This document shows positions 6,139 through 64,000 of a stretch of 64,000 nucleotides of DNA, in pieces. The number at the start of each line of letters is the position of its first letter. The stretch's first letter is position 1. The DNA comes from Eledone cirrhosa. Taxonomy: Eukaryota. The DNA is taken from positions 233,430,001 through 233,494,000 of the forward strand of contig OZ024743.1 of NCBI GenBank assembly GCA_964016885.1. The letters are read 5' to 3'. The notes under the pieces were generated by a model, which had not been told where the DNA came from, searched no databases, and saw only the letters and a list, made by a program, of their open reading frames with translations. Made by a program: the position numbers and the translations under genes.

Positions 6139-6173
6139 GTGGTCTTTCCCATCTTTTCCACTCTATTTTAAAC

Positions 6174-9100: not shown

Positions 9101-9593
9101 GGCCTGGCAGTGCTACCGAGGAGCCTTGCCAGTTCGGGATAAACTCTACAGGCATGGAGGTGCCGTCAGCCGGGCATGTCCGAGATGCGCGCAGGGCGAC
9201 GAAACCGTCCTGCACGCACTCGTCCAGTGTCCGAAAATTGCTGACTTGTGGGTTTATGTCGAACACCTGCTGTCGCGTTTAGGACGGATCCAGCTATCAT
9301 CTGAGTCTATCGTGAGGATTGCCCCGCCCTCCTCCTTTAGCCGGGAAGGGCAGGCAGTTTTTATCTGTCTGGTGGCCATGGCGAAAGAGATAGTATGGTA
9401 GACACGTTTGAAAGGGCTGAAGACGAGCACTTACCTCTTCGGTGATGCTCTGATTGACTTTTTCAAATTTCATTTGAAAAGGAAAATCAGAGTAGAGAAG
9501 GAAGTGCTCTCTTCCCAGCATTTTGTTGAAAGATGGGTGAGAGAAGCAAGAATGGCCCGAGTGAATGGGCCGACTCTGAGTATATATCTGTAA
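6174..9593 (+). CDS. ORF2p: APE endonuclease, RT, C-terminal zinc finger; single nonsense codon at 9399-9401
   Basis: GDWN, SYLDR, TDHK (EN); KSPGLDG, LDQSKAFDRVDH, RQGCPLS, YADD (RT); CPRC..ETVLHALVQC; TAG at 9399 is TGG in copy 1 and the frame continues to 9593. Confidence 0.93.
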
Positions 9594-9840
9594 ACTAAAG
9601 GTGGAAAACTGGGAGAGGGCACTTGCCTTGGTGGTCAGGGTCATTGTGGCTTTTTACTGGGCTTTCTCCACAAATGTCCCTCCGAAGTCTCCCCCCTATT
9701 GGGGAATTTTTCATTGTTATTTTTGTTACATCCTCTGTTTTTGTTTTTTACACGCAGAAATGCCCATTTGTACCGTCCTGCATTGTCCTGCACTGTCCTT
9801 AATGTCTACTTTATGTAAACCCTTGTGGTTAATAAAGAAA

Positions 9841-9887
<47 letters not shown>

Positions 9888-11146: not shown

Positions 11147-11169
11147 TTATTATTATTATTATTATTATT

Positions 11170-11313
11170 GTTCTTTGAGTCTCATTCATTGATGTTAGTT
11201 AACTGGAAAGTTTGTTGAAATGAATATCAAGCCACTACCTGCAGCCTCAGATATTCAGGACGTATCGGAGGGTTCTTGCTGTTCCCAGCAAGCATGCCTT
11301 TTGAAGCATTCCA
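11170..11313 (-). mobile_element. Very short 3'-end copy of Dong/R4 family A
   Basis: Near-identical to 9888-10027; bounded by (TTA)n at 11148-11169 and 11315-11355. Confidence 0.85.
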
Positions 11314-11314
11314 A

Positions 11315-11355
<41 letters not shown>

Positions 11356-11356
<1 letters not shown>

Positions 11357-14300
11357 AGTTGCATTTATCTTGCTTTATGTTCATACGAGTTATCACCAAG
11401 TCACAACCAGTGACCTCAAGAGACAACAAGGTCCGCCATGTTCAAGAAAGAACATACATATTCACACATGCATCTTTAGTGTTTAGACTTGTGATGTACT
11501 TATATTGACAGAATCTTCCTTAATATATGGGCAGTTCCCATTAATACTATCTTTTGTATTTCTCCTATACGCGGGTTTCCTGGGATTTGCGATATGTAAT
11601 CATTAGAATCCTTAGGTATCATTCCCAGAGCGCCTACAACCACTGGTATTGTTTTAGTTCTCAATTTCCACATTTTTCCAATTTCTATCTCCAGGTCCTT
11701 ATACTTGCTCAATTTTTCAAATGTTTTTATAGATACATTCTTGTCTATTGGAACAGACATATCAATTAGCAGGCATACCCTCTTTTGAAAGTCTTTCAAT
11801 ATTATATCAGGTCTGTTTGCATCTATTTTTCGGTCTGTTTGGATGCTAAAGTTCCACAAGATTGAGATGTGATCTTTTTCAAGTATGGGAGGTGGTTGAT
11901 GCTCCCACCAATTCTTTTGATGGGGCAGGTCAAAATGCTTACACATTATCCAATGTATGTATTGTGCAGCTCTGTCATGCCTGTTTAGGTATTCGGTTGG
12001 AGCTATAGGACTGCACATTGAAATTATATGGTCAATGGTCTCTGGTTGTTTTTTGCATACACGGCATAATGGGCTGCACCCATTTTTTATTATGTTGGCT
12101 TGGTCATTTTTTGTTGGCAGACACTGATCTTGTGCCGATATAATCAGTCCTTCAGTCTCCGATTTCAGTCCAGAGGATGCCAACCACTGATGGGTTAAAG
12201 TTTTGTCAACATCAGGATTGTTAGCTCGCTCTGGGTATTTTCCATACAGAGGCTTTTCTTGCCACTTCTTAGCCAGTTTCTGTAGCAGTTCTTTCTTTGC
12301 AGTTACTTTTACCTGCTTTGCTTTTTCTGTGTTTTCCATTTCAGCAGTAAATGGGACTTCTGAAATTTGTAGTCCATTACTGTATCTTTGTGCATCTTTT
12401 GTAATGGAATATGATCTTTTGATGCTTTCGTGTTTCAAAACGAGTTTGATCATCCAATCATGTGATTCCCTTAGATATGTAGATAATCCAATTGTTGCAG
12501 TTTTCAACGCAATGTCTAACTGGATTAACCCACGTCCTCCTTCTTTCCTAGGGAGATATATTCTATCTATATCTGCCTTAGGGTGATGCATTCTGTGCAT
12601 GGTTAAGAATTTTCGAATTTTTGTATCGAGCCTACGGATCTCTGTGCTTGACCAGTTGATGACATTGTAACTGTAGGTTACTACTGGTATGGCAAGCGTG
12701 TTTATGGCATCGATCCTATTCCTTGCATTCAATTCCGTTCTTAAGATTGCTCTTACTCTGCGGTAACATTCCTTCCTTATCCTTTCCCTCATTGTCGAGT
12801 ACTTGATTCCGTCTCCTTCACAAACACCTAGATATTTGTAAGTTTTTTCTTGATCAAGTTCTCTTATCACGTTCCCCCGATCAAGATTAATGTCTGAACT
12901 CTTCAGCAGCTTTCCTCTGGTGAACGTTGCTTTGGCGCATTTATCTAGTCCAAACTCCATTTTAATGTCATCACTGAACTGCTTCACAGTGGATAATAGC
13001 CCTTGCAATTGTTCATCATTTTTTGCAAATAGTTTCAGGTCATCCATGTAGAACAGGTGATTAATGGTTTTGTCATAGACTTTATATCCATGTTTTGTTT
13101 CATTGAGCATTTTACTTAATGGTATAAGTGCGATGCAGAATAAAAGCGGTGATAAAGAGTCACCCTGAAAAATTCCACAATTAATATTAACTTCTCCAGC
13201 TTCCAGTGATTTTGTTTCACTATTCAAAAGGAGTGTCGTTTTCCATGTCTTCATACTGAATGACAAAAACCTCCTGACAACGGGGGATATTTTGAAAATC
13301 TCTAAACATTTTTCAATTCAACTGTGTGGCAAACTATCGAATGCTTTTTTATAATCTATCCAAGCAATCGATAGATTTTTGTGTCTATTATGACAATCTT
13401 CCAGTATCATTTTGTTAACCAGAAGCTGATCCTTACAGCCATATGAGCCTCGTTTACACCCTTTCTGCTCAATGGGAAATAGGTCATTTGTTATCAGGTG
13501 GTCATATGTGTATTCAGTTAGGACTGATGTTAACATTTTATACATTGTGGTCAAGCAAGTTATCGGTCTGTAATTTTGGGGATTGTTTGTCTCATCATTC
13601 TTCGGAAGCAGGAATGTAATGCCGTTAACTAGCCATGATGGTATCTTTTCTGGCTCCTTAACTATTTCATTGTAAAGTTGGGCTAACAGCTCATGAGACT
13701 CTGTGAAGGCATTTATCCAAAAGTTTTGTATTTTGTCTTTTCCTGGGGATTTCCATTTGCTGGTTTTTCTTAGAGCCAAGCGCAACTGTTCAACTGTTAT
13801 ATTTTCCCATGTTGTCCCTCAAGGTGAGCTGTATCTTTCATTTGTCTGTCTATCATTGGGGCATGTATGTTATGAGCTTTTTCTTCGGCCCAGATCTTTT
13901 CCCAGAATTCTTGCACTTCCTCCTTGGGTGGTATTGATTTAGCAGTTATTGTTGACTTACCAATTTTTCTGTAGAAGTTTCTTTGGTTGTTTTTGAACAT
14001 ATTATTGTCCTTATAGAATCTAGATCGTTTTTCAAAGCGCCTTATACGAGGAGCTTTGGCCGACACTTTTTGCTTGATTATTTCTATCAGCATGTCTATG
14101 TCACATGTTGATTTTATACTGTACTTTTTTTTCAATTTTCTAAGTTTAGTTTGTTTAACATGTTCACCTACTTTATAGTTTGTTAAAATTTCTATGTCAG
14201 ATCGGAGAAGGTTTATTTGGCGATTGATATTCTCTTGCCAAGTAAATTTCTTGTGGGAATTCCTTTGTTTTTTCATCTTCACTCCACATAAGTGAGTGGT

Positions 14301-15000
14301 GACTTTAGCCGATGCATAATAGAGATGATTTAAATCAGTAATGTTTAGTTTGTTTGTGATGATAATGTTTTTGAGAATTATGTTAGTCTTGTGTATTATC
14401 TTTTGGTTCTGTTTGGAGTTCTGGATCTTAGGGAGGGTGTCTCGTTTCCCCATGTCAGATTCTTTCATTTTCATCCCGAAAACAGAGGCAATATAGCCTC
14501 TGTTTTCGGGATGTTTCTTTTTCCAGTTGATATATGTCTGTTCTGTATTCGATGTATTTGATGGGTAGTACATGGCAGTGTAGAAAGCCTCAAGGACTTC
14601 TTTATTATCTTCCCTTGACCATTTTTCTCTCTTTTTCTTTGGATTTCTTGGTGGTGAGCATGGAGGGCCAACAGTAGGAGTATTCCGGTTATGGGAGGTC
14701 TCCAGCTCCGAAGTGATGGGAAGGTTTGAACCATTAGCTGATTTTTCGACCCCAGTCTGGTTCCTCTCTGAGAGACGCGGCCCTTTTTTACCCGGGTGAC
14801 GGCCGATCCGGTATGAGATTTTATCATTAGACATTTACTTTATTTTGTCGCGTTTTATCCTTATCCGCAAAGGGGTAATCATTTCGTGTTACCACTTCTA
14901 GAACGAGTGTCAACCAACACTAGAGGGGTCGTTCTCCCCTAGAGACACGGCTATTCCCCGCTGGCCGCCATCCCGGTATTTCTTGGTCACGGGGTTTTCT
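11356..15000 (-). mobile_element. Near full-length Dong/R4-clade element (family B); single ORF broken into 13797-14834, 13318-13785 and 11500-13266
   Basis: WKSPGKD, NYRPITCL, WIDYKKAFDS, GIFQGDSLSPLLF, FYMDDLK (RT); CRVC..ETIDHIISMC, RHD, RPD..IDMSVP (RLE); 3' end abuts (TAA)n; 5' boundary approximate. Confidence 0.88.
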
Positions 15001-20895: not shown

Positions 20896-21788
20896 CATTG
20901 TTATGACGATAATGGAAGCATTGATGAGTTTTTGCAGTGGTGGTTGGCATTGTGACAAGGTTGTAGTAGAGTAAGTTGGTATGATAGTGTTGTAGTGGCT
21001 GAGATGGTCGCTTGGTAGCTAGCAATTGCCTCCCCTTAACAACCCTTCAGGGAAGGGAGGCAAAAATACACCCGGACACAGCCACAGGTTCACTCACTCT
21101 TTCTGGACCACGGACATGAACAGACGTGGAAAGATCCGCTCCTCAAAATATTGACGTTGTAGGAAATTTACTAAATTATTGCATTAAATAAAATGATTGT
21201 TAGACTTGGTTGTGCATTTATTTATTCGACAAAGAGAAACATCACTTTTCTTTATTGGCGACCCTGACGATAAACAATGAAAACGCAGCCTATTGGAGTC
21301 CGAAATTCTTTTTAACGGCAATGTGGAATGGCTTAACATTTGGAATGTCCGAATCACTTAGCGTAAGTCCATAAAATTCATTATATTCCATTTGTTATAG
21401 CACGCATACAGACAAACACAAAAATACAACACACAACAAAAAAAAAAAAAAAAAAAAAAAAAGGATTTCTCTGGAAATAGAATTTTGCTTCCAACATTCT
21501 GTGGAAATTACAAATGGAGATATTTCGTTTTCCCGCGTTCAGCCTGTCTTCTCCAATCCCAGCCATCTGATTGGCTGCATCGTGCCTCATGACGGCTTCA
21601 TCACGGACACATTTTTAAATCAGCCATCTTGGATTTCCTTACCATTAATTTTCATAGAAAATGATTTTTTTTTATTATTAAAATTTTCTTTGGGATATTT
21701 TTTTTTAAAGAAAAAAATTACCAGCAATCAGCAGCAACACCTGGCTAACTATTGACCAACACCAAAAAGTCATCAAATACGTGGCACC

Positions 21789-22574
21789 ATGAGTCAACAT
21801 CATTTGCCGTCCTTCGCAGGCGACATCAAGTTGTGGTTTGCGCAGCTGGAATGTTTCTTCGAATTGACGAAGACAAAGGAACAGCATAAGCTGAAGGTCC
21901 TGATCAATGGCCTACCTGTTTCCTTGGCATTCTCGGTGAAGGACGTTGTGACGGATTTAGACGCCGACGTTACCTACGGCTCATTAAAAAAAGAAATCCT
22001 TCGCCGAAATACCAAGTCGGTAGAGAGCCGTTTTCGGGAGTTGTTGGACGATGCTCAAATGGGTGACAGGAAGCCGAGCTCCTATTTGCGACATTTGCGG
22101 GAGTTGAGCGACTCCCAGGGGATTGACACCCCCTTCATAAAGCAACTTTTTTTCTCACGCCTACCACCAAGTGCGCAAAGAATATTGGTCAATAGTTTAG
22201 AGAAGGATTCACTGGAGCAACTTGCCGCGTCCGCGGATAGGATACTTGAGGTGGACTCGAACAGCAATCAGCATAACCCATATGTGGCTTCAGCTTGCGT
22301 CCCTCCACGCAGTTCTTCTGTGGCCGACGGCAAACTGTTGGAGTTGATTGAAGCTTTCACCAAAAAGGTAGAGGATTTGACGGTACATCACAGAGAGCCT
22401 TCTCAACGTTTGAGGTATCGTTCGCCGCCGTCCTCTATTCATCGCCAGCACTACAACGCAGGCAACAATAATTCTTCGTTGTGTTGGTACCATGCTAACT
22501 TCGGCAGTAGGGCGCAACGTTGTCGCACGCCCTGTGATTATAAGAGATCGGGAAACGCCAAGCAGAGCCACTAG
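21789..22574 (+). CDS. gag: Gag (261 aa)
   Basis: LWFAQLECFF, MGDRKPSSYLRHL, C-terminal CWYH..FG..A..C..PC motif typical of invertebrate Gypsy gag. Confidence 0.9.
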   Translation: MSQHHLPSFAGDIKLWFAQLECFFELTKTKEQHKLKVLINGLPVSLAFSVKDVVTDLDADVTYGSLKKEILRRNTKSVESRFRELLDDAQMGDRKPSSYLRHLRELSDSQGIDTPFIKQLFFSRLPPSAQRILVNSLEKDSLEQLAASADRILEVDSNSNQHNPYVASACVPPRSSSVADGKLLELIEAFTKKVEDLTVHHREPSQRLRYRSPPSSIHRQHYNAGNNNSSLCWYHANFGSRAQRCRTPCDYKRSGNAKQSH

Positions 22575-25500
22575 GAGCGGCTAGTGAACTCTGGGAAAAC
22601 CGACCGAACCGCCATCTTTTCGTATACGACCTGCGGTCAAAAAAATTTTTCCTTGTCGATACTGGCGCGTCGCTGAGTATTTGGCCATCAGTTATCTCAA
22701 AAAAAGCCCAGCCGAAGCAGATATAAATCTACGAGCAGTCAACCACACGGCCATTCGAACGTATGGGCAAATTTCGCTTCCTCTTCGGTTAAAAAATTTG
22801 CGGCGTGATTTGAGGTGGAAGTTTACTGTCGCCGACTTGCCATACGCCATTTTGGGAGCGGATTTCTCCACCATTTTTCCTTGTTGGTGGACATTCGCAG
22901 ACAACACCTTGTTGATGCTGAAACAGGCCTTTCTTTCGAGGGTTCAGAGCCGGACGTCGCCACCGTCAGCCCTTCCTTTTTCTTGGCTGAAGTGGGCAAC
23001 CAGTATCAAAGCCTGCTGCATTCATTCCCTCAGTTGACGCAGGGAAAGTTACGAATAACTAGCCCGGACCATGCGATTGAACACTTCATATCCACTACAG
23101 GTCCACCTGTTTTCTCACGTCCTCGAAGATTGTCTACAGAGAAGTTGAAAGCTGCACGTCTTGAATTCGACCACATGCTGGAATTGGGAATAATTCGGCG
23201 CTCCACAAGTCCTTGGGCATCGCCTCTGCATATGGTACCTAGATCTTCTGGGGATTGGAGACCGACGGGTGACTACCGACGCTTAAACGCGATTACTGTG
23301 CCTGACCGTTATCCAATCCCGCATTTGCAGGATTTTGCGTCGTCATTGCAGGGTTGCAGAATCTTTTCTAAGCTTGATTTGATCCGCGCTTATAACCAAA
23401 TTCCGGTTAACGAGGAGGATATCCCAAAGACTGCTATTGCCACTCCTTTCGGATCGTTCGAGTTCCTCACTATGCCTTTCGGCCTTAGAAACGCTGCAAG
23501 TACCTTCCAACGATTTATGGATGATATTACTCGGGGCCTGGATTTTGTGTACACGTATATCGACGACGTGTTGATTGCTAGTTCTTCCCTTCAGCAGCGT
23601 TCAAAGCATCTGGATCTCGTATTTCGTCGTTTACAGATCTATAATGTTCGAATTAATGCTTCCAAGTGTGTTTTCGGCTCGACTTCACTAACATTTTTAG
23701 GCCATCTGATTGACGCCGATGGTATTCGACCTCTTCCTGAGAAGGTTAAGGCAGTATCGGATTTGCCTCCGCCAAGTTCACTGCGTCAATTGCGTCAATT
23801 CCTGGGCCTTGTAAATTTGTATAGGCGATTCGTACCTGGTTGTTCCAAATTGCTGTTCTCGTTGACAGAGATTTTTAAGGGTTGCCCGCGTAAGAATATG
23901 GACATTTCCTTAAATGAAACGCAGCTTGATGATTTTAAAAAAGTGAAAAAGGCGTTAGCGAACGCGTCTTTGCTCGCCCACCCAGTACCCAACGCCGAGC
24001 TATCGCTCTGTGTTGATGCTTCGGACAGCGCCGTGGGCGCAGTCTTACAGCAGAAGGGTGATGGGGTACAGCAACCACTCGAGTTCTTTTCGAGGAAGTT
24101 AAAGCCTGCAGAAACTCGCTATAGCACCTTTGGAAGGGAGCTATTAGCAATTTATTTATCAGTGAAACATTTTGCTCATGTACTTGAAGGTAGAACATTC
24201 ACCATTTTCACTGATCATAAACCCTTGACGTTTGCTCTTCGAACTAAGGCAGACAAATACTCGCCCAGAGAGATGAGACATCTGGACTTCATCTCACAGT
24301 TCACGAACGACATTCAACATATTCCGGGTTCTTTGAATACAGCGGCCGATGCGCTGTCTCGCCTGCCGATCGCATCGATTTCGTCTTCCGAGGAGATAGA
24401 TTTACATCGAATGACAGCTGCCCAACCCACTCTCGAATCGTTGGATGTTACATCGCCAGAGTTTGTACATTGCAAACTGAAATACATTCCGATCTCAACT
24501 GCTGACGGACAGATACTGTGTGATGTTTCGTTGGACTCACCACGACCTCTAGTCCCAGTGGAACATCGACGAACTGCGTTTCTCGCTTTACATGGCATTT
24601 CTCACCCAGGAGTATCAGCCTCAGTAAAACTCATAACAGCCAGATTTTTCTGGCCTGGTATGAGACGTGACATTGCTGCTTGGTGTCGTTCCTGTGTCGC
24701 TTGCCAACAAGCGAAAGTTCATAGACATGTTAAGGCTCCTCTCGGAACCTTCACCTGCCCCGATGCAAGATTTCGTCACATTCATGTGGACATCGTCGGC
24801 CCGTGGCCGGTTAGTCGTGGTTTTTCGTATCTTTTGACGATTGTTGACCGTTTTTCGCGTTGGCCTGAAGCCGTCCCTATAACAGATATCACCGCCGAAA
24901 CCACAGCCCGTACCCTCGTATCTTCGTGGATCGCTCGTTTCGGTGTACCAACCACCATAACAACAGATCGTGGTCGTCAATTCGAGTCTAACCTCTTCCG
25001 AGAGCTAACCCAAATCCTGGGGGCTACTCGAATAAGAACCACATCTTACCACCCAGCCTCAAACGGAATGGTGGAAAGATTCCACAGGCAGCTCAAAGCC
25101 TCCTTAAGGGCTTCCATGGACTCTTCACGTTGGAGCGAGTACCTACCCATTGTATTGTTGGGTATTCGGTCGACGGTAAAGGTGGACCTTGGGTTCTCCT
25201 CTGCCGAATTAGTTTATGGTACGCCTCTGGCGTTACCGGGGCAAATGCTGGCCCCTTTTGACCTGACTTCGCAGGACCCCGCTTCCTACGTGTCCCGGCT
25301 TCACTCTTATTTCAAGGATCTACCACCGATGGGCACTAGGAAGCAGACTGTAAAAACTGCCGTCCCAAGGGATATTGCCTTGTGGACCCATGTGTTCGTT
25401 AGAGACGACGCCGTGAGACCCCCTCTTCAACGGCCGTACTCTGGACCCTATCGTGTGCTTGCTCGCACAGACAAACATTTCACACTGGACATTCGGGGTT

Positions 25501-25703
25501 CCAGGGAAACGGTTTCCGTTGATCGTCTCAAACGAGCAAACCTGGACAATGACACAATGACACTTGAAACTCAAATGCCCCCCTCTTTTTCTTTGCCACA
25601 CAGGCCTATTTCTTCCCCTCCCCCACCATCAACACACAGAACTACGACCCGTTCTGGGCGAAGGGTGCATTGGCCCCGTAAGCTATGCAGTAATATAAAC
25701 TGA
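22550..25703 (+). pseudogene. pol: Pol (protease, RT, RNase H, integrase) in -1 frame, with two frameshift lesions in the protease region (~22690, ~22865)
   Basis: FLVDTGAS in the -1 frame; [52 protein letters not shown]. Confidence 0.93.
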
Positions 25704-28377: not shown

Positions 28378-28971
28378 ACGTACATACATATATGTATACA
28401 GACGTACAGTAGTATGTATATATATACATGCACACATATATATATGCACGTATCGGTTTAGCGAACATTTATTATAATGCTCGGTTTGTTTGTTTGTAAA
28501 CAAACAAACAGCCCGAATTACGCCGTACATTGTTTAGGCAACCACGTCACCTTTTTGTTCAACACTGACACAGGAACGATGTACTAGTTTCAAGCTTATT
28601 AGCTATCGCCAGCATCGTATACCTTCCTGCCAGATGGTTGAACGTCAGAAAGTATATACTTTTCCTATGCATATTAAAGGTCTAATTTGCATATCGAGTG
28701 AGTTCAGTCGGCCGGGCACACCGTAACCGAGCATTATAATAAATGTTCGGTAAACCGATACGTGCATATATATGTGTGCATGTATGTATATATATATACA
28801 TACTACTGTACGTCTGTATACATATATGTATGTACGTATACATACATACATACATACTTACATTTAAGTAAGTGCCGTACTAAGAGTGAGAAATGAAATT
28901 TCTTTTCATTCTATTCCATTTATCATTTTCGGTGTGCCCGGCCGACTGAACTCACTCGATATGCAAATTAG
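28371..28971. repeat. Two adjacent inverted-repeat pairs (28371-28487/28725-28848 and 28682-28722/28930-28971)
   Basis: Direct reverse-complement matches. Confidence 0.8.
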
Positions 28972-29440
28972 GCTGCCACGTCGACGAACACGCGCCTCAT
29001 TACAACAAGGCCCTCCAGCAGAGTGGCTTCCGGGAGGAAATATCCTGTTATCCAGCTTCCCTTAGCGAATCCAACTGGCTACACCGCCGCTTACGCAACG
29101 TAACGTGGTTCAATCCTCCCCATAATGTCGAGGTGGCAACACCTATCGGGAAAATCTTCTTTAGACTCCTCGAAAAACACTTCCCACTACAACACCGCTA
29201 CGACAACATAATCAAAGAAAATACCATCAAACTCTCCTACAGCACCACACCTAACTTCGCACAAAACATCGTCTCTTCAAACAACAAAAAACTCAACCCT
29301 TATGGAAGAAATAAACTAGACATCAGTGGAGAGCCGACCAGGAGGTGTAACTGCCCTGATAGATCTACGTGCCCCCTCAACAACAAATGCCGAGAACGTA
29401 ACGTGATCTACCAGTGCAACGTGAGAACGGACACTAACAA
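28972..29440 (+). pseudogene. Naiad-type PLE fragment (linker to start of GIY-YIG)
   Basis: WFNPP, IGKIFFRLLEKHFP, TIKLSYS, CNC..CPLNNKC, NVIYQC. Confidence 0.8.
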
Positions 29441-29613
29441 CAACAATAATAATAATAATAATAAAAGTGATGTTGATGGTGATGATTACTAGGAAATGCT
29501 ATTTTCATCATTTCTAAAAATAGCAAAACAATTGATGCTTGGGATAGGATCAATTAGTAGTCGTTAGACATGCTCAACCAACTGTGACGCCTAAACCAAT
29601 CAGCTTTAATAAT

Positions 29614-31739: not shown

Positions 31740-33973
31740 TACATTTGATGTCGAAAGATAACACACAATTTCAACACTTCATGACAACGATACACACCAT
31801 ATGCAAAAAGTGTGTCCCGGAGAAAGAGGCAAACAGACACAAAAATCTTATTCCCAGAGATAGGAAAATCCTTATGAGACGTAGAACTAAACTCTCAAAC
31901 CAGTTGAATAGTCAACAAAACAAAAACAAGAAGGAATCCTATTTGAAACGTGCACTACTTGACACCGAGATTGCACTCAAACTTTCACATGAGAATGAGA
32001 GGGCAAAGAAAGAGAACAGGGCCATAGAAAACATTAAAACAAACCCTAAGGCCTTCTTTAAATTTGCAAAAGAAACTGCCTCAGTACACTGCAAGATTGG
32101 GCCACTCTTCCACACGGACGGTTCATTAACCGAAAATCCCCAAGAGATATGTGAAATACTGAACGAATAGTACAAAAGTGTCTTCTCACATGTCCACTGA
32201 GGCACATGCAAATAACGAAGCCAGATGAGTTCTTTGATGCCACAACACTACATCAAGAAATGGCAACCATCAACCACATAGACATAACGGAGGAGGATGT
32301 GGTGTACGCCATTGATGAAATTAGAACAGACTCGGCTGCTGGACCTGATGGATTTCCAGCAGTTCTCTTAAAAATATGTAAGCGGGCCTTAGCAACTCCA
32401 CCGAAGATGCTCTTCAGAAGCTCCTTGGCTAGCGGTGTACTACACAGGGAGCTGAAAGAAGGCACAATATGCCCTATCCATAAAGGAGGTAGTAGAGCGG
32501 AGGCCAAGAACTATAGGCCAGTCTACCTGACGTCGCATATCAGTAAGGTCATGGAGCGAGTCGTCAGAAAGAAACTAATCACTTTCCTCGAAGAAAATGA
32601 CCGCCTGACTAGCACGCAACATGGCTTCCGCCCAGGAAGAAGCTGCCTTACACAGCTGCTACATCACTACGACTGGGTACTGAGACAACTACTAGACAGC
32701 TCACATGTGGACGTGATATATCTTGACTTTGCGAAGGCCTTTGACAAGGTCGACCACGGAATCATATGTCACAAACTACACGGACTCGGCATAACTGGAA
32801 AAGTAGGTGAGTGGCTGCATGGCTTCCTAAGGGACAGAAGCCAGGCAGTCGCAGCAAATGGGGCCCTCTCGAGGGAAACACCGATAACAAGTGGGGTGCC
32901 CCAGGGGACAGTCCTGGGACCACTACTGTTTTTGGTGGCTCTCTCGGACATGCCCTCTGTGGTGCATGCAACAACATCCCTCACTAGCTATGCTGATGAC
33001 ACTAAGGTAGCACAGGCAATCAAAAACCCGGCTGACGCTGCCCTTTTACAGCAGGATCTGGATGCCATATACAGATGGGCGGAAGAAAACAACATGCAGT
33101 TTAATGCTGGCAAATTCCAAGCCCTACAATACAAACCAGCAAACACAAATATAGTGGAACACAGTTACACAGGACCAGGAGGGACCGATATCCCCGCGTC
33201 AAAATCGATACGAGACCTGGGCATAGACATGAGCGATGATGCATCTTTTTCTTCACATATCATGAAAGTGGCGACAACGTGCAGACGACTCGCTGGCTGG
33301 ATCTTGAGGACTTTCCGGACAAGAGATCGAGACACCATGTTGACACTGTGGAGGACTTTTGTCCTAAGCCGCCTGGACTACTGCTCCCAGTTGTGGTCAC
33401 CCCATAGTGTCAAACTAACCACGGAGTTTGAGGCAATCCAGCGAAGCTACACCAAGAGGATTGCCAAGATGAGGGAGACAAGCTACTGGGAGAGGCTAAA
33501 GGAACTAAACCTCTACTCCTTGGAGCGAAGACGGGAGAGATACGCAGTGATCTACATGTGGAAAATCCTGGAGGGACTAGCACCAAACTTTGGCATTGGG
33601 AGCTGGACCAACCGTCGAACAGGACGTCACTGTGTGGTGCCAAAGGTCCCGTCTTCCACATCTAGAATAAGGAGCAGGTATTGCAATAGCCTGGGATTCA
33701 AGGGCCCTCAACTCTTCAACAGGCTGCCGAGGCATCTGAGAGACTTGCATGACGTGGAGGTGGATGTCTTTAAGAAACATCTCGACACCTTGTTATCCAG
33801 GATCCTGGATGAGCCCACAGCAAGACACGGGGGAAACCTAAGGGCAGCAGCAAAAAACTCCCTCTTACACCAGTGGCCAACCTATACAGGCTGGAGATAA
33901 AATGTGTAGCAACAAGGGCGGTGCCCCAGCATGGCCTCAGCCGGATGGCTGAAACAGGTAAAAGAGTAAAAGA

Positions 33974-34747: not shown

Positions 34748-34797
<50 letters not shown>

Positions 34798-34919
34798 GGA
34801 GGTGAGTTTTATTGTAGTACAATAAAGCAATGCAGATATCGGATAAGAAGCACTCTACAGTTTGTAGGACTGGAGTATACATAATATAAGATCAAAAGAT
34901 GGTTAAAGGAGTTCCATGT

Positions 34920-34988
34920 ATTTTATTATGCGCATTTCAAAAACAAACATCATCATGCAATAATATTTGTGTTTTCATCAGATAAAAC
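34920..34988 (-). ncRNA. Type I hammerhead (inverted pLTR copy)
   Basis: Reverse complement of 37664-37732. Confidence 0.82.
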
Positions 34989-35021
34989 AGGAGAACATGA
35001 TATGAAGGCTAAAAAACACTT

Positions 35022-36650
35022 GTGGATAGTGCAGTTTTAAATCAACATATGAAAAGTGGTTTTAGATTGATGTGTGATATTGGGAAAAATATTTTATTTA
35101 AATATTCTGACATCACCACAGATGAACTTCACATCATCCTCACCGCACGTAAAACCATCCTAGAGTTCAACAACGAATATTGGACCAGAGCCGATACCTC
35201 TAACAACTTCGACATCACAATGGGAGCATCCGATTCATCCCAATTGACTGATTTAATTGGTATCTTCATTTTGAACTCTTTGAGTCGGAAAATTCCTCAA
35301 CTTCGCGGTGGAATTTATCGTGACGATGGACTCTTTACTATCCTAAATTGCAATATAGTTAACCTGAATATTATTAAGAACAATATACGTAATCTCTTTA
35401 ACCAACATAACCTAAAAATTGAATTTGATAATAGTATCAAACTAGCTAATTTCTTGGATGTATCTCTTAATCTTGACACTGGCCTATATTACCCTTACCA
35501 TAAAAACAATGAGAACCTAAATTATGTTAACTTTAAATCTAACCATCCTACCAATATCAAGAATGCTATAGTTAGTAATATTGGAAAAAGAATATATAAC
35601 ATATCTTCTAATAAAAACATCTTTGATGCTAACGCCAATTACTATAATAACGCACTTTCTAAAGCCGGCTATCCAGATAAAATCAAATATAGTAAAGAAA
35701 CAAATTCTAGAAAAACTTACAGTAGAATAATTAATCATGATCATTCCAATAATTTTAATAAAAGACCTAGATACAAAAACATAATCTGGTATAATGCTCC
35801 TTTCTCCATCTCTATTAATAACAATATTCCTAAATTATTTTTTAGTGCCTTAAATAAATGCTTCCCTCCCTCACATATCTATAGTAAAATATTTAACAAA
35901 CACACCATCAAATTTTCTTATTCTACATCCTCCAATATTTCCAACATCATCTCTAAACACAACAATAAAATACTAAATACTAAATCTCTTCCTTCCAACA
36001 TTGAATTTCATAATAACAGTAATAGTACTCCCGACGTCATTGTAAACCCTAGGCTAACTTCTGTAAATCCAAATACAACGTCAAACACAACTTCGCTAAA
36101 TGTTCATAATCCAACTCTAAATCAAGAAACTATTATTCCTATTATTCCTATCGCAAACAACTTCTCCAATCCAATTCCTTCTATAGATAACACTAGGTCA
36201 CTCATTAATAATCTCTCTAATTGCAACTGCCGCATTAAAAATAAATGTCCTCTCAACAACCATTGTCTCGATAAAAACTTAATTTATGAATGTAAAGTTA
36301 TAACTAGCACCAATTCCTTCACCTATTTTGGCTCCACTTCCACCTCTTTTAAAGCTCGTCTCTATAATCACCATTCATCTTTCAAATACAAACTTAAAAG
36401 AACCAACACGGCTCTCTCAGAACTCATATGGTCCTTGAAAGACAAAAACATTAAATATACCATCTTTTGGAAGAAGGTTTCTTCTGCATCCTCATACTTG
36501 AACAGCTCTCTATCTAAAATCTGTAATCTCTGCCTAAATGAAAAATTTACCATTATCTCTAATCTAGATTCTATAATAAATAGACGTACAGATTTGTTTT
36601 CTATCTGCCTGCATAAATTCCATAGGACTTTTCACAAAGTATACAGTTAA
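35022..36650 (+). CDS. Truncated PLE RT + GIY-YIG endonuclease (first ~26 codons come from the inverted pLTR)
   Basis: FDITMGASD, GGIYRDDGL, NFLDV, SNHP, IWYNAPFS, CNC..CPL..C, LIYEC..YFGST..FKARLYNH, CNLCLNEK. Confidence 0.88.
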   Translation: MDSAVLNQHMKSGFRLMCDIGKNILFKYSDITTDELHIILTARKTILEFNNEYWTRADTSNNFDITMGASDSSQLTDLIGIFILNSLSRKIPQLRGGIYRDDGLFTILNCNIVNLNIIKNNIRNLFNQHNLKIEFDNSIKLANFLDVSLNLDTGLYYPYHKNNENLNYVNFKSNHPTNIKNAIVSNIGKRIYNISSNKNIFDANANYYNNALSKAGYPDKIKYSKETNSRKTYSRIINHDHSNNFNKRPRYKNIIWYNAPFSISINNNIPKLFFSALNKCFPPSHIYSKIFNKHTIKFSYSTSSNISNIISKHNNKILNTKSLPSNIEFHNNSNSTPDVIVNPRLTSVNPNTTSNTTSLNVHNPTLNQETIIPIIPIANNFSNPIPSIDNTRSLINNLSNCNCRIKNKCPLNNHCLDKNLIYECKVITSTNSFTYFGSTSTSFKARLYNHHSSFKYKLKRTNTALSELIWSLKDKNIKYTIFWKKVSSASSYLNSSLSKICNLCLNEKFTIISNLDSIINRRTDLFSICLHKFHRTFHKVYS

Positions 36651-54391: not shown

Positions 54392-55826
54392 TCAATCCTG
54401 GTAGTATTTATAATATGAAAATGTAGATTTTAAGCGATGGTTACAGTATAACGATCGCTCTATTCTGTTATTTAATAAAATGTTTTTGGATTTCATAATA
54501 CAAAATAATTCTACATTACATAATCTACAAAATTCCTGTCCATTGGAATATGGGGGGGGGGCAGTCGCTATTATATCCCATTTTAGGTGAAATTGTTGGT
54601 TATTTTCACGCAGCTGCCAAGCCTTGTCTGCGAGTGTTGTTACATAACGCTGGTTTTCATGTTTTATCGAATAACGATGTCTATAAAGGCGTGATTTAAA
54701 GGAGGTGGCTGTAGATCCCACATAGTACCACTTCTGTCTATCCGATTCGATAGTACATTTGTATACGATGTTGCGTTCAAGACACTGGTTGTTCAACGGA
54801 CACATTCCTGGTTGGACACAGTTGCAATTACAATTTTGCGTTGTTGTATTGCCATGGATGGGTTGATGAGGTTGCTTATGTAGAACAGGATGTTGTTTGT
54901 TGTTTTGTGATGTTATAGCTAATGTTTTACGTGTATTGTTATGTGTTGGAAGGCGTTTATACAACCGTTTTGCGTTAAGCATTTTTATATGTTGTTCAAT
55001 ATTAGGGGCGGTTGAATATGAAAGTCGGATGGTGTTAGGGTTTAAGATTTTATTATATTTATGTGATGTTGGAAAGTGTTTTCTAACTAATCGAAAGAAT
55101 TTTGAGGGTAGATTGGTTTTAATAGATTTGTTATAGACCGGGTTGTACCAGATATACTCCTTACATCGCCTTCTGTTTGGTGGTGTGCGACTATTATTGT
55201 GTCTATTGCGGTAGTGTATGTATGGTGGTGATTCTGTGCTATTTCTACTCCTATGTGATTTATTTTGGGTGTTTTGGTGATCATTGACTATATACTCTAT
55301 ATTATCTAGGTGACCGGCTTTCCTAAGTGCATCATCATAATACTCGGCATGTTCTTTGAAGGTTTGTTGGTTGGACGATAGGCGGGAGATTCTAAGAGAA
55401 ACATTTCTAGGGATGGATTTAATTATAGAGAGTGGATGGTTAGAACTCGTATTTACATATTTAAGGTTCTCATTTAGTTTATGGAACGGTTTAATCGTAT
55501 CTGTATTGAGATTGAAAGTAACATCAAGGAAATTGACCTCTTTGAGGTTATATTCAAATGTAATATTTAATCCTAGTTCTTTAAAAAGTTTTCTGATATT
55601 TTTACGCATCCTTTCTAAATTCTGGTTATTCATATTCTTAACTAATAGGAGCGCATCGTCACGGTAAATTCCACCGTGGAGATCCTTGAATTTTCCTTGT
55701 AATCTGTGGGTGATATAAATTCCCACAAGATCTGTTACCTCCGCCGAATCATTAGAACCCATAGTGATATCAAAATTAGAAGGTCTATCTTTGCGAACCC
55801 AGTAGCTATCATCGAATTTAACTATA
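54392..55826 (-). CDS. Truncated Naiad RT + GIY-YIG (inverted arm)
   Basis: Same translation as the + arm from ITMGSND to YYQD. Confidence 0.85.
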
Positions 55827-57379
55827 TTGATGAATATTATTCCTCAATTTCACCTGATACTCTACATGAAGCTCTTTCGTTCGCTAAGGATAATTCCGAC
55901 CTTACGGATGCTGAAATTAAAATTATTATGGAAGCGAGAAAAACTATAGTTAAATTCGATGATAGCTACTGGGTTCGCAAAGATAGACCTTCTAATTTTG
56001 ATATCACTATGGGTTCTAATGATTCGGCGGAGGTAACAGATCTTGTGGGAATTTATATCACCCACAGATTACAAGGAAAATTCAAGGATCTCCACGGTGG
56101 AATTTACCGTGACGATGCGCTCCTATTAGTTAAGAATATGAATAACCAGAATTTAGAAAGGATGCGTAAAAATATCAGAAAACTTTTTAAAGAACTAGGA
56201 TTAAATATTACATTTGAATATAACCTCAAAGAGGTCAATTTCCTTGATGTTACTTTCAATCTCAATACAGATACGATTAAACCGTTCCATAAACTAAATG
56301 AGAACCTTAAATATGTAAATACGAGTTCTAACCATCCACTCTCTATAATTAAATCCATCCCTAGAAATGTTTCTCTTAGAATCTCCCGCCTATCGTCCAA
56401 CCAACAAACCTTCAAAGAACATGCCGAGTATTATGATGATGCACTTAGGAAAGCCGGTCACCTAGATAATATAGAGTATATAGTCAATGATCACCAAAAC
56501 ACCCAAAATAAATCACATAGGAGTAGAAATAGCACAGAATCACCACCATACATACACTACCGCAATAGACACAATAATAGTCGCACACCACCAAACAGAA
56601 GGCGATGTAAGGAGTATATCTGGTACAACCCGGTCTATAACAAATCTATTAAAACCAATCTACCCTCAAAATTCTTTCGATTAGTTAGAAAACACTTTCC
56701 AACATCACATAAATATAATAAAATCTTAAACCCTAACACCATCCGACTTTCATATTCAACCGCCCCTAATATTGAACAACATATAAAAATGCTTAACGCA
56801 AAACGGTTGTATAAACGCCTTCCAACACATAACAATACACGTAAAACATTAGCTATAACATCACAAAACAACAAACAACATCCTGTTCTACATAAGCAAC
56901 CTCATCAACCCATCCATGGCAATACAACAACGCAAAATTGTAATTGCAACTGTGTCCAACCAGGAATGTGTCCGTTGAACAACCAGTGTCTTGAACGCAA
57001 CATCGTATACAAATGTACTATCGAATCGGATAGACAGAAGTGGTACTATGTGGGATCTACAGCCACCTCCTTTAAATCACGCCTTTATAGACATCGTTAT
57101 TCGATAAAACATGAAAACCAGCGTTATGTAACAACACTCGCAGACAAGGCTTGGCAGCTGCGTGAAAATAACCAACAATTTCACCTAAAATGGGATATAA
57201 TAGCGACTGCCCCCCCCCCATATTCCAATGGACAGGAATTTTGTAGATTATGTAATGTAGAATTATTTTGTATTATGAAATCCAAAAACATTTTATTAAA
57301 TAACAGAATAGAGCGATCGTTATACTGTAACCATCGCTTAAAATCTACATTTTCATATTATAAATACTACCAGGATTGA
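55827..57379 (+). CDS. Truncated Naiad RT + GIY-YIG; predicted N-terminus 55706-55826 is antisense-arm sequence
   Basis: YYSSI, FDITMGSND, GGIYRDDAL, NFLDV, SSNHP, IWYNP, CNC..CPL..C, IVYKC..YVGST..FKSRLYRH, CRLCNVE, CNH. Confidence 0.88.
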
Positions 57380-58128
57380 ACGCCTGTCTCTATCCCCGTT
57401 TGATTGTCAAAATAGATATGAACATTCTTTATTAGTCTTAATTCTATCAACTCTTCTATTATTTACCTTTTAATACAAACTGCTATAGATAAAATGAGAT
57501 TTCTGATTTTTTGATTCAATTCCCTAGTGCAAATACCAGCTGACCACTAGCATTGATGTTATTTAGTAGCAATCGAAATCTCCCCCTTCCCCAATTGACA
57601 CTTTATGATTAATACTACTGCACCAAATGACCAGCCCTGTCCACTGTCCAGTTGGTCAAGTAGAGATTAAAATCGGCACCCCCAAAATTCTTATTTAGAT
57701 TTACTCATGGTATTCTCATTAAAAACCCATTATATACTTGTTTAGCAGTAAATTATTTTACCATCTGTCATATTCTATCCCCTCTGTTCCTTCCTCTTTT
57801 ACTAATATAAATACTTCAATTTTTCTTATTTTATCCAGTTTATCCAAAATCTCTGAAGAAGTGACAACTGATTATACATTTGCTATCGAATACTTGCTAA
57901 CATTATATGATTACGCAAGCAGCGATACATAGGTATTCGGTCTGTTACAGAAACATATGTCAATACCTAATAAATTCCTTTTTTAACAAAAGCACTTTCA
58001 TTTTATATTCATCCTTTCTACATTTCTCCGGAATATAATTTATACTCGTTGAGCAAACCTGCACGTACGCTGTTCATCTCTAACGTAACGATATATTATC
58101 ACTACATTATTGATAACCTGAAATTTTA

Positions 58129-59683
<1,555 letters not shown>

Positions 59684-59692
<9 letters not shown>

Positions 59693-60327
59693 TGGATGTA
59701 TATATAATGTATTTTGCAATACACTTTATGCTTAATTAAAAGCATTTTGAAGTCCGTATGCTATTGTTTTAGAGTAGTGACAGATTCACTTACTTTAATC
59801 TCAGCAAACAGGGGAGATAAGCCGACAAGACCTTGTGTCGCTTTTGTTGAAGCTTATCAAGGCTAAGTACCCCTCCTGTCTACTGAGATTACTGATGTTA
59901 TATTCTTATAGAATTCTAGTAAATAATCAGGAACTGATTATACAGAGCGATTGTTGGTCAGGCAGGAATTAAAAATTAAAATTGGAACTCTGAAATAGCA
60001 ATATATATATGGATGTATATATAATGTATTTTGCAATACATTTTATGCTTAATTAAAAGCATTTTGAAGACCGTATGCTATTGTTTTAGAGTAGTGACAA
60101 ATTCACTTACTTTAATCTCAGCAAACAGGGGAGATAAGCCGACAAGGCCTTGTTTCGCTTTTGCTGAAGCTTATCAAGGCTAAGTAAACCTCCTGTCTAC
60201 TGATATTACTGATGTTATATTCTTATAGAATTCTAGTAAATAATCAGGAACTGATTATACAGAGCGATTGTTGGTCAGGCAGAAATTAAAAATTAGAATT
60301 GGAGCTCTGAAATAGCAATATATATAT
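59684..60327 (-). mobile_element. Retrozyme-like tandem dimer (2 x 317 bp); HHRs at 59820-59864 (GAAA to GACA mutant) and 60137-60181
   Basis: Reverse complement of the 51.5-kb monomer; TGGATG recurs at 59693 and 60010. Confidence 0.88.
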
Positions 60328-60459
60328 CATCATCATCACCGTTTTACGTCCGTTCTTCCACGCTAGCATGGGTTAGACGGGTTGTCCTGTTGTGGGCAGT
60401 GTCTGGTCGGCTGACCATGCCTTGCTCATACAGGAACTGATATATATATATATAAATTC

Positions 60460-60587: not shown

Positions 60588-63190
60588 ATTTTTTCATTCT
60601 GAGGATTGAAAGCAAAATCTTTTGCTTTTAAGAAACCACTGGTAAATGGAATAATTGCCTTATGTTGTTTATTACATAACTATTAAGCTCTGTTACCTAC
60701 ATAGAACACTCTTTTTTCCTGGACTTTTCCGACGGAATTACTTCATTTATACAGCTCCAACCGGGATTGATTGAAGCATATTCTATATTACATATACGAT
60801 TGGCACTTTCTAAGCCCGATTAGTTGAGCACTCTACAGTTTTCAGGAATTTAACCAACATACACCATGGATCTTTATGAATTGGATTATTCAATCAAAAA
60901 TATACCCACTCCTTCCAACACAACTTATACCAAAATCCTTATAGATAAAATCGAACAAGTCGTTAAAAGAATGAGATGGAAGGCAATCGTTTACGATGGA
61001 CTATTTAGGGCTGATACTAAAGATTGTTTTGACATCAAATCCCGTAAATATCCACCTAGAATTAAAGACATGGCCAACTTCGAATTAGACCTGGTTAATC
61101 TAATTAGTGATATCAAATTTCGTAAGTACAGTAATAACTTTCAAACTAAACTTTCTCACGATATTTCTAATTTTAGAAATTCTACAAATACTTTTGTTCT
61201 TTCTGATAAAACTAAAAAATCTCTTTGAAGTTAATAGTACTTTGTATAACCAACTTTTAACTAATAGTATTACCAATAAATATCAATTAACTAATAATAA
61301 TACCTACAATACTATCAATAAAGAAGCTAAAGAACTAGCTAGTTCTTTAAATATAGATAACCGGATTGAAAGCCTAGCTAAGCGTAAAGAATATATTACC
61401 CTTAAAGACCATAAATTGGACTTTACTAATCGACCTAGTTGTAGACTGATTAACCCGGCTAAATCCGAGGTTGGCCTTGCAAGTAAAAAAATCTTAAGAA
61501 AAATAATTCTCCAAATTAGAACTAACACTGACCTATCACAGTGGCTAAATACTTCCTCTGTTATTTCTTGGTTTAATAATATACAAGGTAAAAATAAGTG
61601 TAGATTACCCAATTTGATATTGTCGATTTTTACCCATCTATTACTGTTTCCTTATTAACTAATGCCTTAGATTTTGCAAGACCCTTCATTAACATTTCTT
61701 AATTAGAAGAAGACATTATCTTTCATGCTAGAAAAACTTTACTTTTTACTAATGATAATATTTGTGTTAAAAAGTCAAACCCTGAAAACTCTTTTGATGT
61801 TGCAATGAGTTCATATGACAGTGCGGATGTGTGTGACTTAGTAGGATTATTCCTTCTCCACACCCTCAAAGAGAAATTTCCGTCCCATTATATCGGTTTA
61901 TACCGTGATGACGGATTAGCAGTTTCTCATAACACCAACGGCCATAACCTTGATAAATTCCGTAAAGATTTAATCAATACTTTTGCTAATCTTAACCTTA
62001 AAATCACTATAGATAGGAACCTTACTAATGCTAACTTTCTTGATATTAATCTTGATCTACTTACCGCCTCTTTTAAACCCTATCATAAACCTAATGAAAA
62101 TCTTAGGTATATACACAAAGAGTCTTGCCATCCCTCTATAGTTTTTAACAATCTTATTCCTAACATTAGCCGTAGGATTTCTACCTTATCTTCGTCTATA
62201 GACATTTTTAATAAAGCCCCGTCCCTTATTATAATAAAGCCCTTAAGAACAGCAGTTTTACAGAAAAAAATTCTTATTTACCTACTCCCCCCCTAAAACT
62301 AACCACAATAACAGAAAAAGGAAGATTATTTGGTTTACACCCCCCTTCTCTCTAACTGTCAAAACTAATGTAGGAAGGAAATTCCTTGAACTCTTAGACA
62401 AACATTTTCCTCCTAATCATAGATATTAGAAGATATTTAATAGGAACGTAGTTAAGATCAGCTACTCTTGTTTCCCATCTATGAAGTCCAAAATCACCAG
62501 TTCAAACCATACGAGAACAAATCCAGGATGCAGTTGCAGGAAGCCGGATGAATGCCCATTGCAGGGTAAATGTAACACCAAATCTGTTGTTTATGAGGCT
62601 AAGATAACACCGGTAATCAACAACCAGCCATCCAGGAGTGAGCGATATGTCGGTATGACCCAGGACAGGTTTAAAACCAGATTTTACTCACATGTCGCTT
62701 CTTTTAAGCACTCCGATAAACGAACATCAACGGCCCTCGCAAGTAAGGTGTGGGAACTCAAGGATAGTAACATCCCGTACTCTATTGATTGGTCTATATT
62801 AGACCATTCGAGGGAGTACCAAAGGGAAACAAAGAATTGTTCTTTGTGTACCACAGAAAAATATAGGATTTTGCTAAACTTGAGAGCCACTTCCGCTTGC
62901 CTTAACTCAAACACTGAGATCTTCAGATGCTGTCCTCATCTGAAATCGCATCTGATCTGTAACTGGATTGACACTCCTATGATAAATCAACCGCCTTGAA
63001 CTCCTTCTCTGCTCTTTACTTCTGCTACGGTTTTTTATTTTGCTGAATCTACGTTCTGTACTCTTGTATATATATTTTTTTCTCCCTTACCTCCCCTTAT
63101 ATTTCACCTTTTCCTATGTTTTCCCCGCCCCCATATATTCTTTTTGCCTTGCCCTTCACATACCTATGTGTATGTGTATGTATATTTATG
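60586..63190 (+). mobile_element. Full-length but frameshifted Naiad PLE (ORF pieces 60866-62999)
   Basis: YSIKNIP, KRMRWKA, LKDHK..CRLINPAKS, FDIVDFYPSI, IGLYRDDGL, CSC..CPL..C, VVYEA..YVGMT..FKTRFYSH, CSLCTTEK, CPH. Confidence 0.9.
60593..60650 (+). ncRNA. Type I hammerhead in the 5' pLTR of a Naiad element
   Basis: TTCATT-CTGAGGA-TTGAAAGCAAA/TTTGCTTTTAA-GAAA-CCACTGG-TA-AATGGA. Confidence 0.82.
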
Positions 63191-63196
63191 TATATA

Positions 63197-64000
63197 TACC
63201 AACACTTGCACAGACAAAAACACAAGCCAAACCTCAACAAGAAAGAATGGGAAGAATTAAATAGATTAAAAACCGACAGAACCATTACAATTAAAGATGC
63301 CGATAAAGGGAGTACAGTAGTCCTAATGGAGACAGAATTCTATATCAACTTAGCGCTCTCCACTTTGGAAAACGAAACATACTACGAAAAGGCTGAACAC
63401 TACAATCAACAGAAAATTATGAGAAACCTAAAAACTCTAATCAACCAATACAAAGAAGGACTCACTAACAAGGAATTCAGCTTCATCACAGACTTCACAA
63501 GCAAATCCAGCCTCTTCTACGGTATCCCTAAAGTACATAAAAGCGAATCAATAAGTAAGGCATGCAAGGAAGCCACAGACATAGTCATCAATGTCCCCTC
63601 ACCCAATGATCTCAAATTAAGACCTATAATAGCAGGCCCCGCTTGCGAAACGCACCGTCTTAGCAACTTCATTGATACCCTTCTCAAACCCTTCCCCAAA
63701 CACATCAAAAGCTATATAAGGGACGATCTAGATATGCTCAATCACCTCCCTAATATGCCACTTTCTGAACAAACCCTACTAGGGACGTTCGATGTAGTCA
63801 ACCTATACTCCAACATCCCCCACAACCTAGGAATAGAAGCTATCCAATTCTGGCTGGATAATTTCCACAATGAACTCCCACAACGCATCAAAAAAGAATT
63901 CGTGATAGGGACTCAAATTTATCTTGGAGAACAATTACTTCGTTTTCAATAACAAATCCTACAGGCAGAAATCTGGGACCGCTATGGGAACGAAAACAGC
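63197..64000 (+). mobile_element. 5'-truncated Neptune/Poseidon-type PLE RT, running off the window
   Basis: PNLNKKE, IKDADKGSTVV, FYGIPKVHK, LRPII, FDVVNLYSNIPH, GTAMGT after a frameshift. Confidence 0.85.

Follow-up and report, generated by a model that had tools for sequence, protein, structure and literature searches.

The window, that is, the whole stretch of 64,000 nucleotides of Eledone cirrhosa DNA analysed here, carries two tandem arrays of a 317-nt retrozyme unit, a miniature third copy and a head-to-head insertion of a Penelope-like element (PLE; Table 1). The minus-strand array was resolved by TRF with a period of 317, 2.0 copies and 96% matches; it amounts to 2.03 units overall and contains no ORF of at least 150 aa. 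In the numbering used below, position 1 is the first nucleotide after the internal TA run of the unit, and the predicted ribozyme cut falls after position 178. The 5' end of the array lies within the TA run, at unit position 309 (minus strand), and its 3' end lies at the TA-run site, here called proximal, where it merges with genomic (TA)n. The initial annotation had described two 317-nt monomers that start and end at this run, about 130 nt from the cleavage site, as well as a plus-strand array whose 3' end merges into (TA)n at the same run. All of this was borne out by the mapping, with a distance of 131-139 nt from the predicted GUC/G cut to the run. The far edge of the adjoining tail stretch is the distal 3'-end site of the family, which the minus-strand array leaves unused.

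The miniature insertion consists of a minus arm of ~20 nt with a tail-site end and a plus arm of ~40 nt with a TA-run end, and a local partial duplicate of it lies at 58786-58839. The short (GAT)n-tailed element next to the minus-strand array measures 113 nt, is identical at several loci, has 151 first-look candidates and shows (TA)n at its 5' side in 8/8 viewed loci. A 289-bp inverted pair of another repeat (49627-49915 and 51198-51486, 96% alike) adjoins the plus-strand array. Within the retrozyme unit, at positions ~250-25 (51643-51735 in the window), an ATG past the most conserved block starts a frame of 28 codons whose stop lies at the tail end and which is, by eye, in frame in families A and D; it may be a chance frame or the remnant of a PLE start. 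The conserved block before this ATG also bears a by-eye likeness to the start of the Hydra-like ORF described below, at a different position relative to the ends. Other retroelements lie at 137-9869, 9962-14834, 21756-25703 and 32155-33900; going by their ORF translations, we take them to be tandem two-ORF LINE copies, an RTE/R2-like LINE, a Gypsy-like element and a CR1-like RT.

Table 1 Retrozyme copies, ribozyme motifs and associated elements in the window.
Feature	Position	Strand	Remarks
Retrozyme array, single arm, 2.03 units of 317 nt	59684..60327	-	TRF and unit alignment
Type I hammerhead motif, 5' unit	60124..60193	-	U3-A8 core, intact GAAA, palindromic helix III; predicted cut 60141/60140
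Internal CATCC and 10-nt TA run	60001..60015	-	Proximal 3'-end site of the family; end mapping
'Tail' stretch of 27-34 nt with conserved GCTATTTCAG block	59968..60000	-	Family alignment and end mapping
Hammerhead motif, 3' unit	59807..59876	-	Core GACA at 59837, predicted inactive; predicted cut 59824/59823
Second retrozyme array, 1.54 units	51542..52029	+	5' end at unit position 148, 3' end at TA run
Hammerhead motif, plus-strand array	51837..51906	+	Intact core; predicted cut 51889/51890
Head-to-head insertion of autonomous-type, Hydra-like Penelope element	53751..58128	both	Left end short, right end long; (TA)n at both
Miniature head-to-head insertion in (TA)n	58659..58718	both arms	Third copy in the window
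Unrelated young short element with (GAT)n tail, in (TA)n	60328..60445	-	Abuts 5' end of the minus-strand array

In the 5' unit, two private G-to-T changes affect distal helix I of the hammerhead motif. In the 3' unit, GACA stands for GAAA, so that the dimer is not an intact two-ribozyme cassette, and with this core the copy is probably not a source of monomers. The commonest hammerhead forms in the family are intact. In 11 natural copies representing six related subfamilies, pairing is seen in 93% of the cells of the structure and two-sided changes at 9/17 pairs; a shuffle control is inflated by the relatedness of the sequences, but slid-structure controls pair at only 41-59%. The position 3-8 pair is U-A in 8 of these copies and C-G in 3. 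The hammerhead motif is real as a structure, and the covariation of its helices across families implies selection on the fold. Rfam returned three Hammerhead_HH9 matches below threshold (24-28 bits versus a cut-off of 52), and its scan of the whole window was dominated by microsatellite matches to miRNA models. Minimum-energy single-strand folds of the ribozyme region did not yield the catalytic fold.

A 23-mer marker taken from the unit matches the 3.0-Gb genome exactly at 1,569 places, its reversed control at none. Exact matches are in excess on the forward strand (940/629, 390/216 and 222/90), which suggests that a long plus-strand array of subfamily A may exist. Insertion ends were tabulated for the first 100 places listed, corresponding to 46 clusters in the first 152 Mb of contig C1, all of which were examined; the sample therefore represents one chromosome and loci that carry the marker 23-mer just 3' of the cut site. 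Matches below 88% identity or shorter than 35 nt were dropped, as was a local duplicate (L092), and the counts comprise only the 46 pattern-listed clusters, excluding two earlier similarity searches that were biased to full-length look-alikes. In this sample, arrays reach 6.5 units with pure 317-nt periodicity and no ORF, and the flanks are unrelated between loci, which identifies the copies as dispersed insertions. The assignment to a retrozyme-type family (tandem, with a hammerhead motif, dispersed and without ORF) thus holds.

The 46 loci provided 78 arms, whose 3' ends fall into two narrow groups: 33 lie at the TA run and 36 at positions 25-35 (19 at position 27 and 12 at position 32), with 9 elsewhere and none at the cleavage site (positions 170-186). 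The sequence continues into (TA)n at 34/36 tail ends and 26/33 TA-run ends, and the tail ends have only an AT/TA dinucleotide in common with the target. This agrees with the earlier proposal that the 3' ends lie at fixed internal points anchored in (TA)n, and not at the cleavage site. The companion claim that copies end at the UA run describes the 33 proximal ends, but not the 36 that lie 25-35 nt further on. Proximal ends (n = 34, including L119) were also read individually: by our own reading, 24 retain CATCC, 4 stop past TACA, 5 lie in an upstream 8-nt run and 1 farther upstream, and all of them stop at TA/AT. The unit contains 75 AT/TA dinucleotides, few of which are used as ends. The spread of the proximal ends fits annealing of a (TA)n primer along the AU-rich stretch, or later slippage.

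The 5' ends are distributed evenly over the unit, with 3/78 near the cut site, against 3.7 expected, and 3/78 in the TA run (positions 305-317), as expected from a uniform spread. A 5' end at the TA run, taken by the initial annotation as the rule, is therefore a special case of the minus-strand array, while its 3' end follows the rule of the family. This 5' end likely reflects a cDNA that was halted when its second TA run annealed to the far side of the target. The cut site is crossed by 69/78 arms, a figure inflated because the marker adjoins the cut, and twice or more by 26, with no pile-up of ends there.

The typical insertion, unforeseen by the earlier reading, is a head-to-head pair, found at 31/46 loci. 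All pairs with two canonical ends combine one TA-run end with one tail end (26/26, p ~1.5e-8); each of the remaining 5/31 pairs has one odd end, and in none are the two ends alike. Arms overlap by at least 1 nt at 25/31 pair junctions (BLAST overlap, uncorrected for chance). Such strict one-of-each pairing indicates a geometry set by protein. A chimeric arm was seen at L019 (1290-1831), where a subfamily B unit is followed by a subfamily A unit; the switch falls between positions 243 and 52, around the TA run and not at the cut site, and probably represents a later insertion into the TA run.

The two arrays of the window are arranged tail to tail at a distance of 7.6 kb, each with its 3' end at the TA run. 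A helix I variant has 3 occurrences in the genome, which are all three complete ribozymes of the two arrays, compared with 606 for the common allele; a second variant has 2 occurrences, in the plus-strand array and the 5' unit of the minus-strand array (common allele 312), and is absent from the 3' unit of the latter. Since the two variants are confined to these arrays, the arrays share an origin, possibly in a single event that copied a heterogeneous multimer into two nearby (TA)n tracts, as a local daughter copy or through later conversion. If they arose in one event, the one-of-each rule was broken, as both end at the TA run. The minus-strand dimer is consequently not clean evidence for a monomer circle.

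At a distance of 2 kb from the minus-strand array lies the head-to-head insertion of an intact Penelope element, with ORF parts at 54392-55843 (-) and 55703-57379 (+), which is taken here as a model of the machinery. Its family is young, with a 3,115-nt unit and many open frames of 781 codons (772 aa from the ATG). The 772-aa ORF contains RWK, DKT, a CxCx5C linker, CxxC, CxH and a C-terminal EN, and the element inserts into (TA)n; by these motif and target criteria, its sequence places it in the Hydra clade type. No Pfam family matched the Hydra-like proteins of the window. At 30 loci of this family, every completed 3' end lies at one of two sites separated by 106 nt, both of which have only a TA dinucleotide in common with the target and no UA run. 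Among eight insertions fetched whole, 4 are clear short/long pairs, 1 is a composite with two long ends and 3 are unscorable. The same ends are thus produced by an element with a 3-kb template and without a UA run, which means that the two-ended (TA)n palindrome is made by Penelope proteins and that the end pattern, proposed initially as the footprint of a circle, is not by itself such a footprint. The tails of two measured Hydra-like insertions are ~90 and 106 nt long, versus 27-34 nt in the retrozyme.

More Hydra-like Penelope elements with the CxCx5C linker lie at 34795-37775, 61104-62999 and 28950-29492, the one at 34795-37775 being a head-to-head pair whose arms differ by ~90 nt (tail). 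Penelope-like fragments of another type were found at 39796-40299, with a Pfam GIY-YIG match, and at 63047-63952. The family of the head-to-head insertion contains a candidate ribozyme with a much extended helix II. In addition, a hammerhead motif of a Hydra-like family with an apparent U3-A8 core lies 3' of the endonuclease domain at L115 and L113; it is otherwise unlike the monomer.

Related units with 63-85% identity are present in the fetched loci. Family D is 77% identical, has a C3-G8 core and shows the same two end sites among its 30 best matches. Family C is 63% identical, with a unit of ~311 nt and 32 candidate loci; its complete pairs are TA/tail in 22/23 cases and TA/TA in 1 (counts from 27/32 candidates, L244 being without a match above the cut). 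As sister families keep C3-G8, the switch to U3-A8 is visible within one lineage. A UA-rich run of 7-10 nt is kept at the proximal site in families A, C and D. Between the two end sites, the GCTATTTCAG block is unchanged across an alignment of four families, which suggests a candidate protein-binding site.

Several side observations concern these relatives. Palindromic arrays of family C with 15 to >30 near-identical 311-nt units and a canonical core occur at L224 (1104-5877, G000:C2:362.12 Mb), L232, L236 and L239 and represent the best material for a test of the circle. Position 84-85 of the family C unit is a 5'-end hotspot (L225-L231, L241-L251) at the edge of an internal inverted repeat; a junction 85/254 recurs in 6 insertions of different haplotypes, and the position is also a hotspot of a single-unit C-to-T change. 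It may be a pause site of the RT. More diverged retrozyme families (E and F) with the same end sites were seen at L198 (5680-6147), L146 (995-1264) and L126 (3049-3176).

As regards the template, we compared haplotypes within and between insertions, and most insertions carry a single haplotype. The two arms belong to the same subfamily in 52/52 classifiable pairs. In subfamily B, differences at shared polymorphisms amount to 0.17 per 100 nt within an insertion versus 1.01 between insertions, and the contrast is weak in subfamily A (0.19-0.23 versus 0.32), in a comparison of 87 insertions of which 41 were best-hit picks. Rare alleles, 34 in total, are shared by every unit that covers them in 25 insertions, in 15 of these across both arms. 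Family C comprises 16 haplotypes among 27 insertions, 9 of which carry private variants that are fixed throughout their units, in 7 cases in both arms. For example, L224 consists of 15.4 identical units, and L232 has at least 30 units (up to ~31) with one private base. A new variant that is fixed in all units needs a bottleneck of one unit followed by repeated copying, and these sequences thereby suggest a single monomer as template. However, adjacent units share private variants in L101, L107, L017 and L093, and L239 and L240 contain periodic higher-order repeats; arrays therefore also grow after insertion. In L221 and L234, variants are common to single units of opposite arms. Conversion is slow relative to mutation, as indicated by 392 unshared rare alleles in 47,686 unit-sites.

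The family can be compared with known systems. Animal non-LTR retrozymes are tandem repeats of 150-450 bp units with low GC, a type I hammerhead and no ORF (PMC7229834); target-primed RT of retrozyme circles into tandem cDNA, with PLEs as candidate helpers, has been put forward as a hypothesis (PMC7229834). Here, the unit likewise falls within 150-450 bp in tandem, has a GC below 50% and neither LTR nor ORF, and is dispersed and non-autonomous. The unit length class, low GC, hammerhead type and the range from dimers to multimers correspond to the published retrozymes, but RNA and cleavage were demonstrated in that work (PMC7229834), whereas the present family is known from genomic sequence. 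Conversely, end mapping, (TA)n targeting, inverted pairs and tails, all described here, are absent from the available part of that paper. A recent preprint treats retrozymes as non-autonomous PLE derivatives (bioRxiv 10.64898/2026.07.22.740005), similar to our reading in PLE origin and trans-mobilisation and reporting mean units near 315 bp in several classes, mostly vertebrates; its accessible text does not mention a tail, head-to-head copies or a target site. In contrast to that study, the PLE link is drawn here from the architecture of the insertions and not from homology to a parent. The repeat-annotation paper (PMC13282606) does not mention ribozymes or retrozymes in the part available. 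Subscription papers and supplements aside, no retrozyme insertion ends mapped in a similar way were found in the literature searched.

On the PLE side, units of EN+ elements show 5' truncation, partial tandems, an inverted copy and a 30-40-bp tail that is often one-ended (PMC8557442, PMC3846280), and almost all families of the Hydra clade, which carry RWK, DKT, CxCx5C, CxxC and CxH motifs, insert into (TA)n (PMC8557442). The retrozyme shows the same traits, namely fixed 3' ends (69/78), flat 5' ends, an inverted copy (31/46) and a tail of 27-34 nt at one end only (26/26 pairs; family C 22/23). It differs from Hydra-clade units in having no ORF and up to tens of 317/311-nt units per arm, and the one-of-each rule is near absolute (26/26; 22/23), compared with 'often' as described for EN+ PLEs. 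The Anolis Poseidon protein PAc nicks and extends both strands of an AT-rich target, and its RT starts at two internal sites that bound the tail and lack homology to the target (PMC11167929); hammerhead cleavage was dispensable for PAc insertion in vitro (PMC11167929). In the retrozyme, by contrast, a UA-rich run forms one of the two sites, and the RNA is non-coding. In the hammerhead of the Schistosoma PLE Cercyon, U3-A8 replaces C3-G8, and the palindromic helix III suits dimeric folding (PMC4209133); both traits recur here within a tandem retrozyme.

Taken together, with a probability of about 70%, we interpret the locus as part of a non-coding, hammerhead-bearing tandem family (a non-LTR retrozyme) in (TA)n that is moved in trans by a PLE in the following way. 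The PLE protein would bind the RNA close to the conserved block that separates the two end sites, and would nick both strands of the self-complementary (TA)n. Each 3'-OH would then prime RT, one at the UA-rich stretch, where pairing of primer and RNA likely helps, and the other at the tail site on 2-3 nt of homology only. Both cDNAs would run upstream through the ribozyme for a random length and join by short microhomology to give the palindrome. A monomer circle excised by the ribozyme is the likely template in many events, and multimeric RNA may serve in some. The enzyme is likely a (TA)n-targeting PLE, probably one of the Hydra clade. Within this scheme, PLE-type mobilisation with internal priming into (TA)n is the part we hold with high confidence, and the two primings, one per strand, appear quite probable. 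Head-to-head palindromes have been read as self-priming on an antisense template (PMC3846280); since both arms have fixed 3' ends on the sense strand, two primings are favoured over this mode. That a monomer circle is a frequent template is slightly favoured; what speaks for it is the homogeneity of haplotypes, and the minus-strand dimer is among the exceptions. A more specific version, in which a Penelope RT dimer sits on one 317-nt circle and both cut (TA)n strands are primed 27-34 nt apart in a double rolling-circle target-primed RT (TPRT), is put forward tentatively.

Most of the competing explanations concern the template and the choice of the priming site. The same PLE machinery could copy an uncleaved linear multimer from one or a few long homogeneous arrays, with no circle involved. 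Autonomous 3.1-kb elements have ends and tandems of this kind, mutation of the ribozyme does not prevent insertion in vitro (PMC11167929), and 8/9 Xenopus dimers were without cleavage (bioRxiv 10.64898/2026.07.22.740005); moreover, the strand excess (940/629, 222/90) hints at a long source array, and the window pair, L221 and L234 fit a heterogeneous template. Yet 9/27 family C insertions have their own fixed variants in a family of only 32 candidate loci, so that each private haplotype would require its own long, now missing, source array, and the hammerhead helices covary across families. We therefore regard a linear multimer as the general template as rather unlikely. Repeated jumping on a linear monomer would mimic a circle. 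Growth and homogenisation of single-unit insertions by unequal crossover, slippage or arm-to-arm conversion would explain the private variants shared by adjacent units (L101, L107, L017, L093) and the periodic higher-order patterns of L239 and L240, but conversion is slow, as noted above from the unshared rare alleles, both arms are long and uniform even in young insertions (15.4 units in L224), and the fixed ends are left unexplained, all of which makes this origin of the arrays quite improbable.

The initial annotation had assumed that pairing of the UA run with nicked (TA)n alone sets the priming site on the circle, as in a microsatellite-homing element. Internal priming on (TA)n is retained in our scheme, and the 34 proximal ends, which spread over a 25-nt AU-rich stretch and always stop at TA/AT, as well as the UA-rich run of 7-10 nt kept in families A, C and D, are compatible with a contribution of pairing. 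However, 36/78 ends lie at the tail site, which needs only the AT/TA dinucleotide, the pairs always combine the two types of end, (TA)n is targeted by the autonomous element without a UA run at either end, and few of the 75 AT/TA dinucleotides in the unit are used, so pairing as the sole determinant is improbable. Finally, the monomer might be nothing but the pseudo-LTR of an autonomous PLE that normally has its 3' end at the TA run. Its geometry resembles a PLE end, with the ribozyme lying 140-170 nt upstream of both end sites, and 24/57 Xenopus retrozyme families match Repbase, nearly all of them PLE ends (bioRxiv 10.64898/2026.07.22.740005). Against this stand the pure 317-nt periodicity to 6.5 units without an ORF and the search for a parent or partner, which, from 54,080 first-look candidates, covered parts of the 3' region in about a dozen families. 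At 31 single-arm loci, no PLE ORF end led into the retrozyme within 1.2 kb; PLE fragments nearby (4/31) were on the opposite strand or mid-ORF, and upstream flanks were unrelated. Likewise, a four-family profile search of the fetched loci yielded only further retrozyme families and no Penelope end. As judged from these loci, a mere pseudo-LTR is very improbable.

The class of element and all of the mechanistic steps have been published before, including internal PLE priming (PMC11167929), (TA)n targeting (PMC8557442) and the copying of retrozyme circles (PMC7229834), and what is useful here are the statistics of insertion ends. In the literature as far as available, the origin of the tandem and inverted structures of PLEs and the question whether retrozyme circles serve as templates are stated to be open. 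The present family offers hundreds of short, young insertions with readable ends and unit haplotypes, beside intact ORFs of (TA)n-targeting PLEs. The one-of-each rule and the insertion-wide private variants narrow the range of models, and a 317-nt substrate is defined for an in vitro test. If the double rolling-circle version is true, each insertion would be a palindrome of the haplotype of one molecule and thus a genomic record of double rolling-circle TPRT, which would account for the tail and the inverted repeat of Penelope elements in general.
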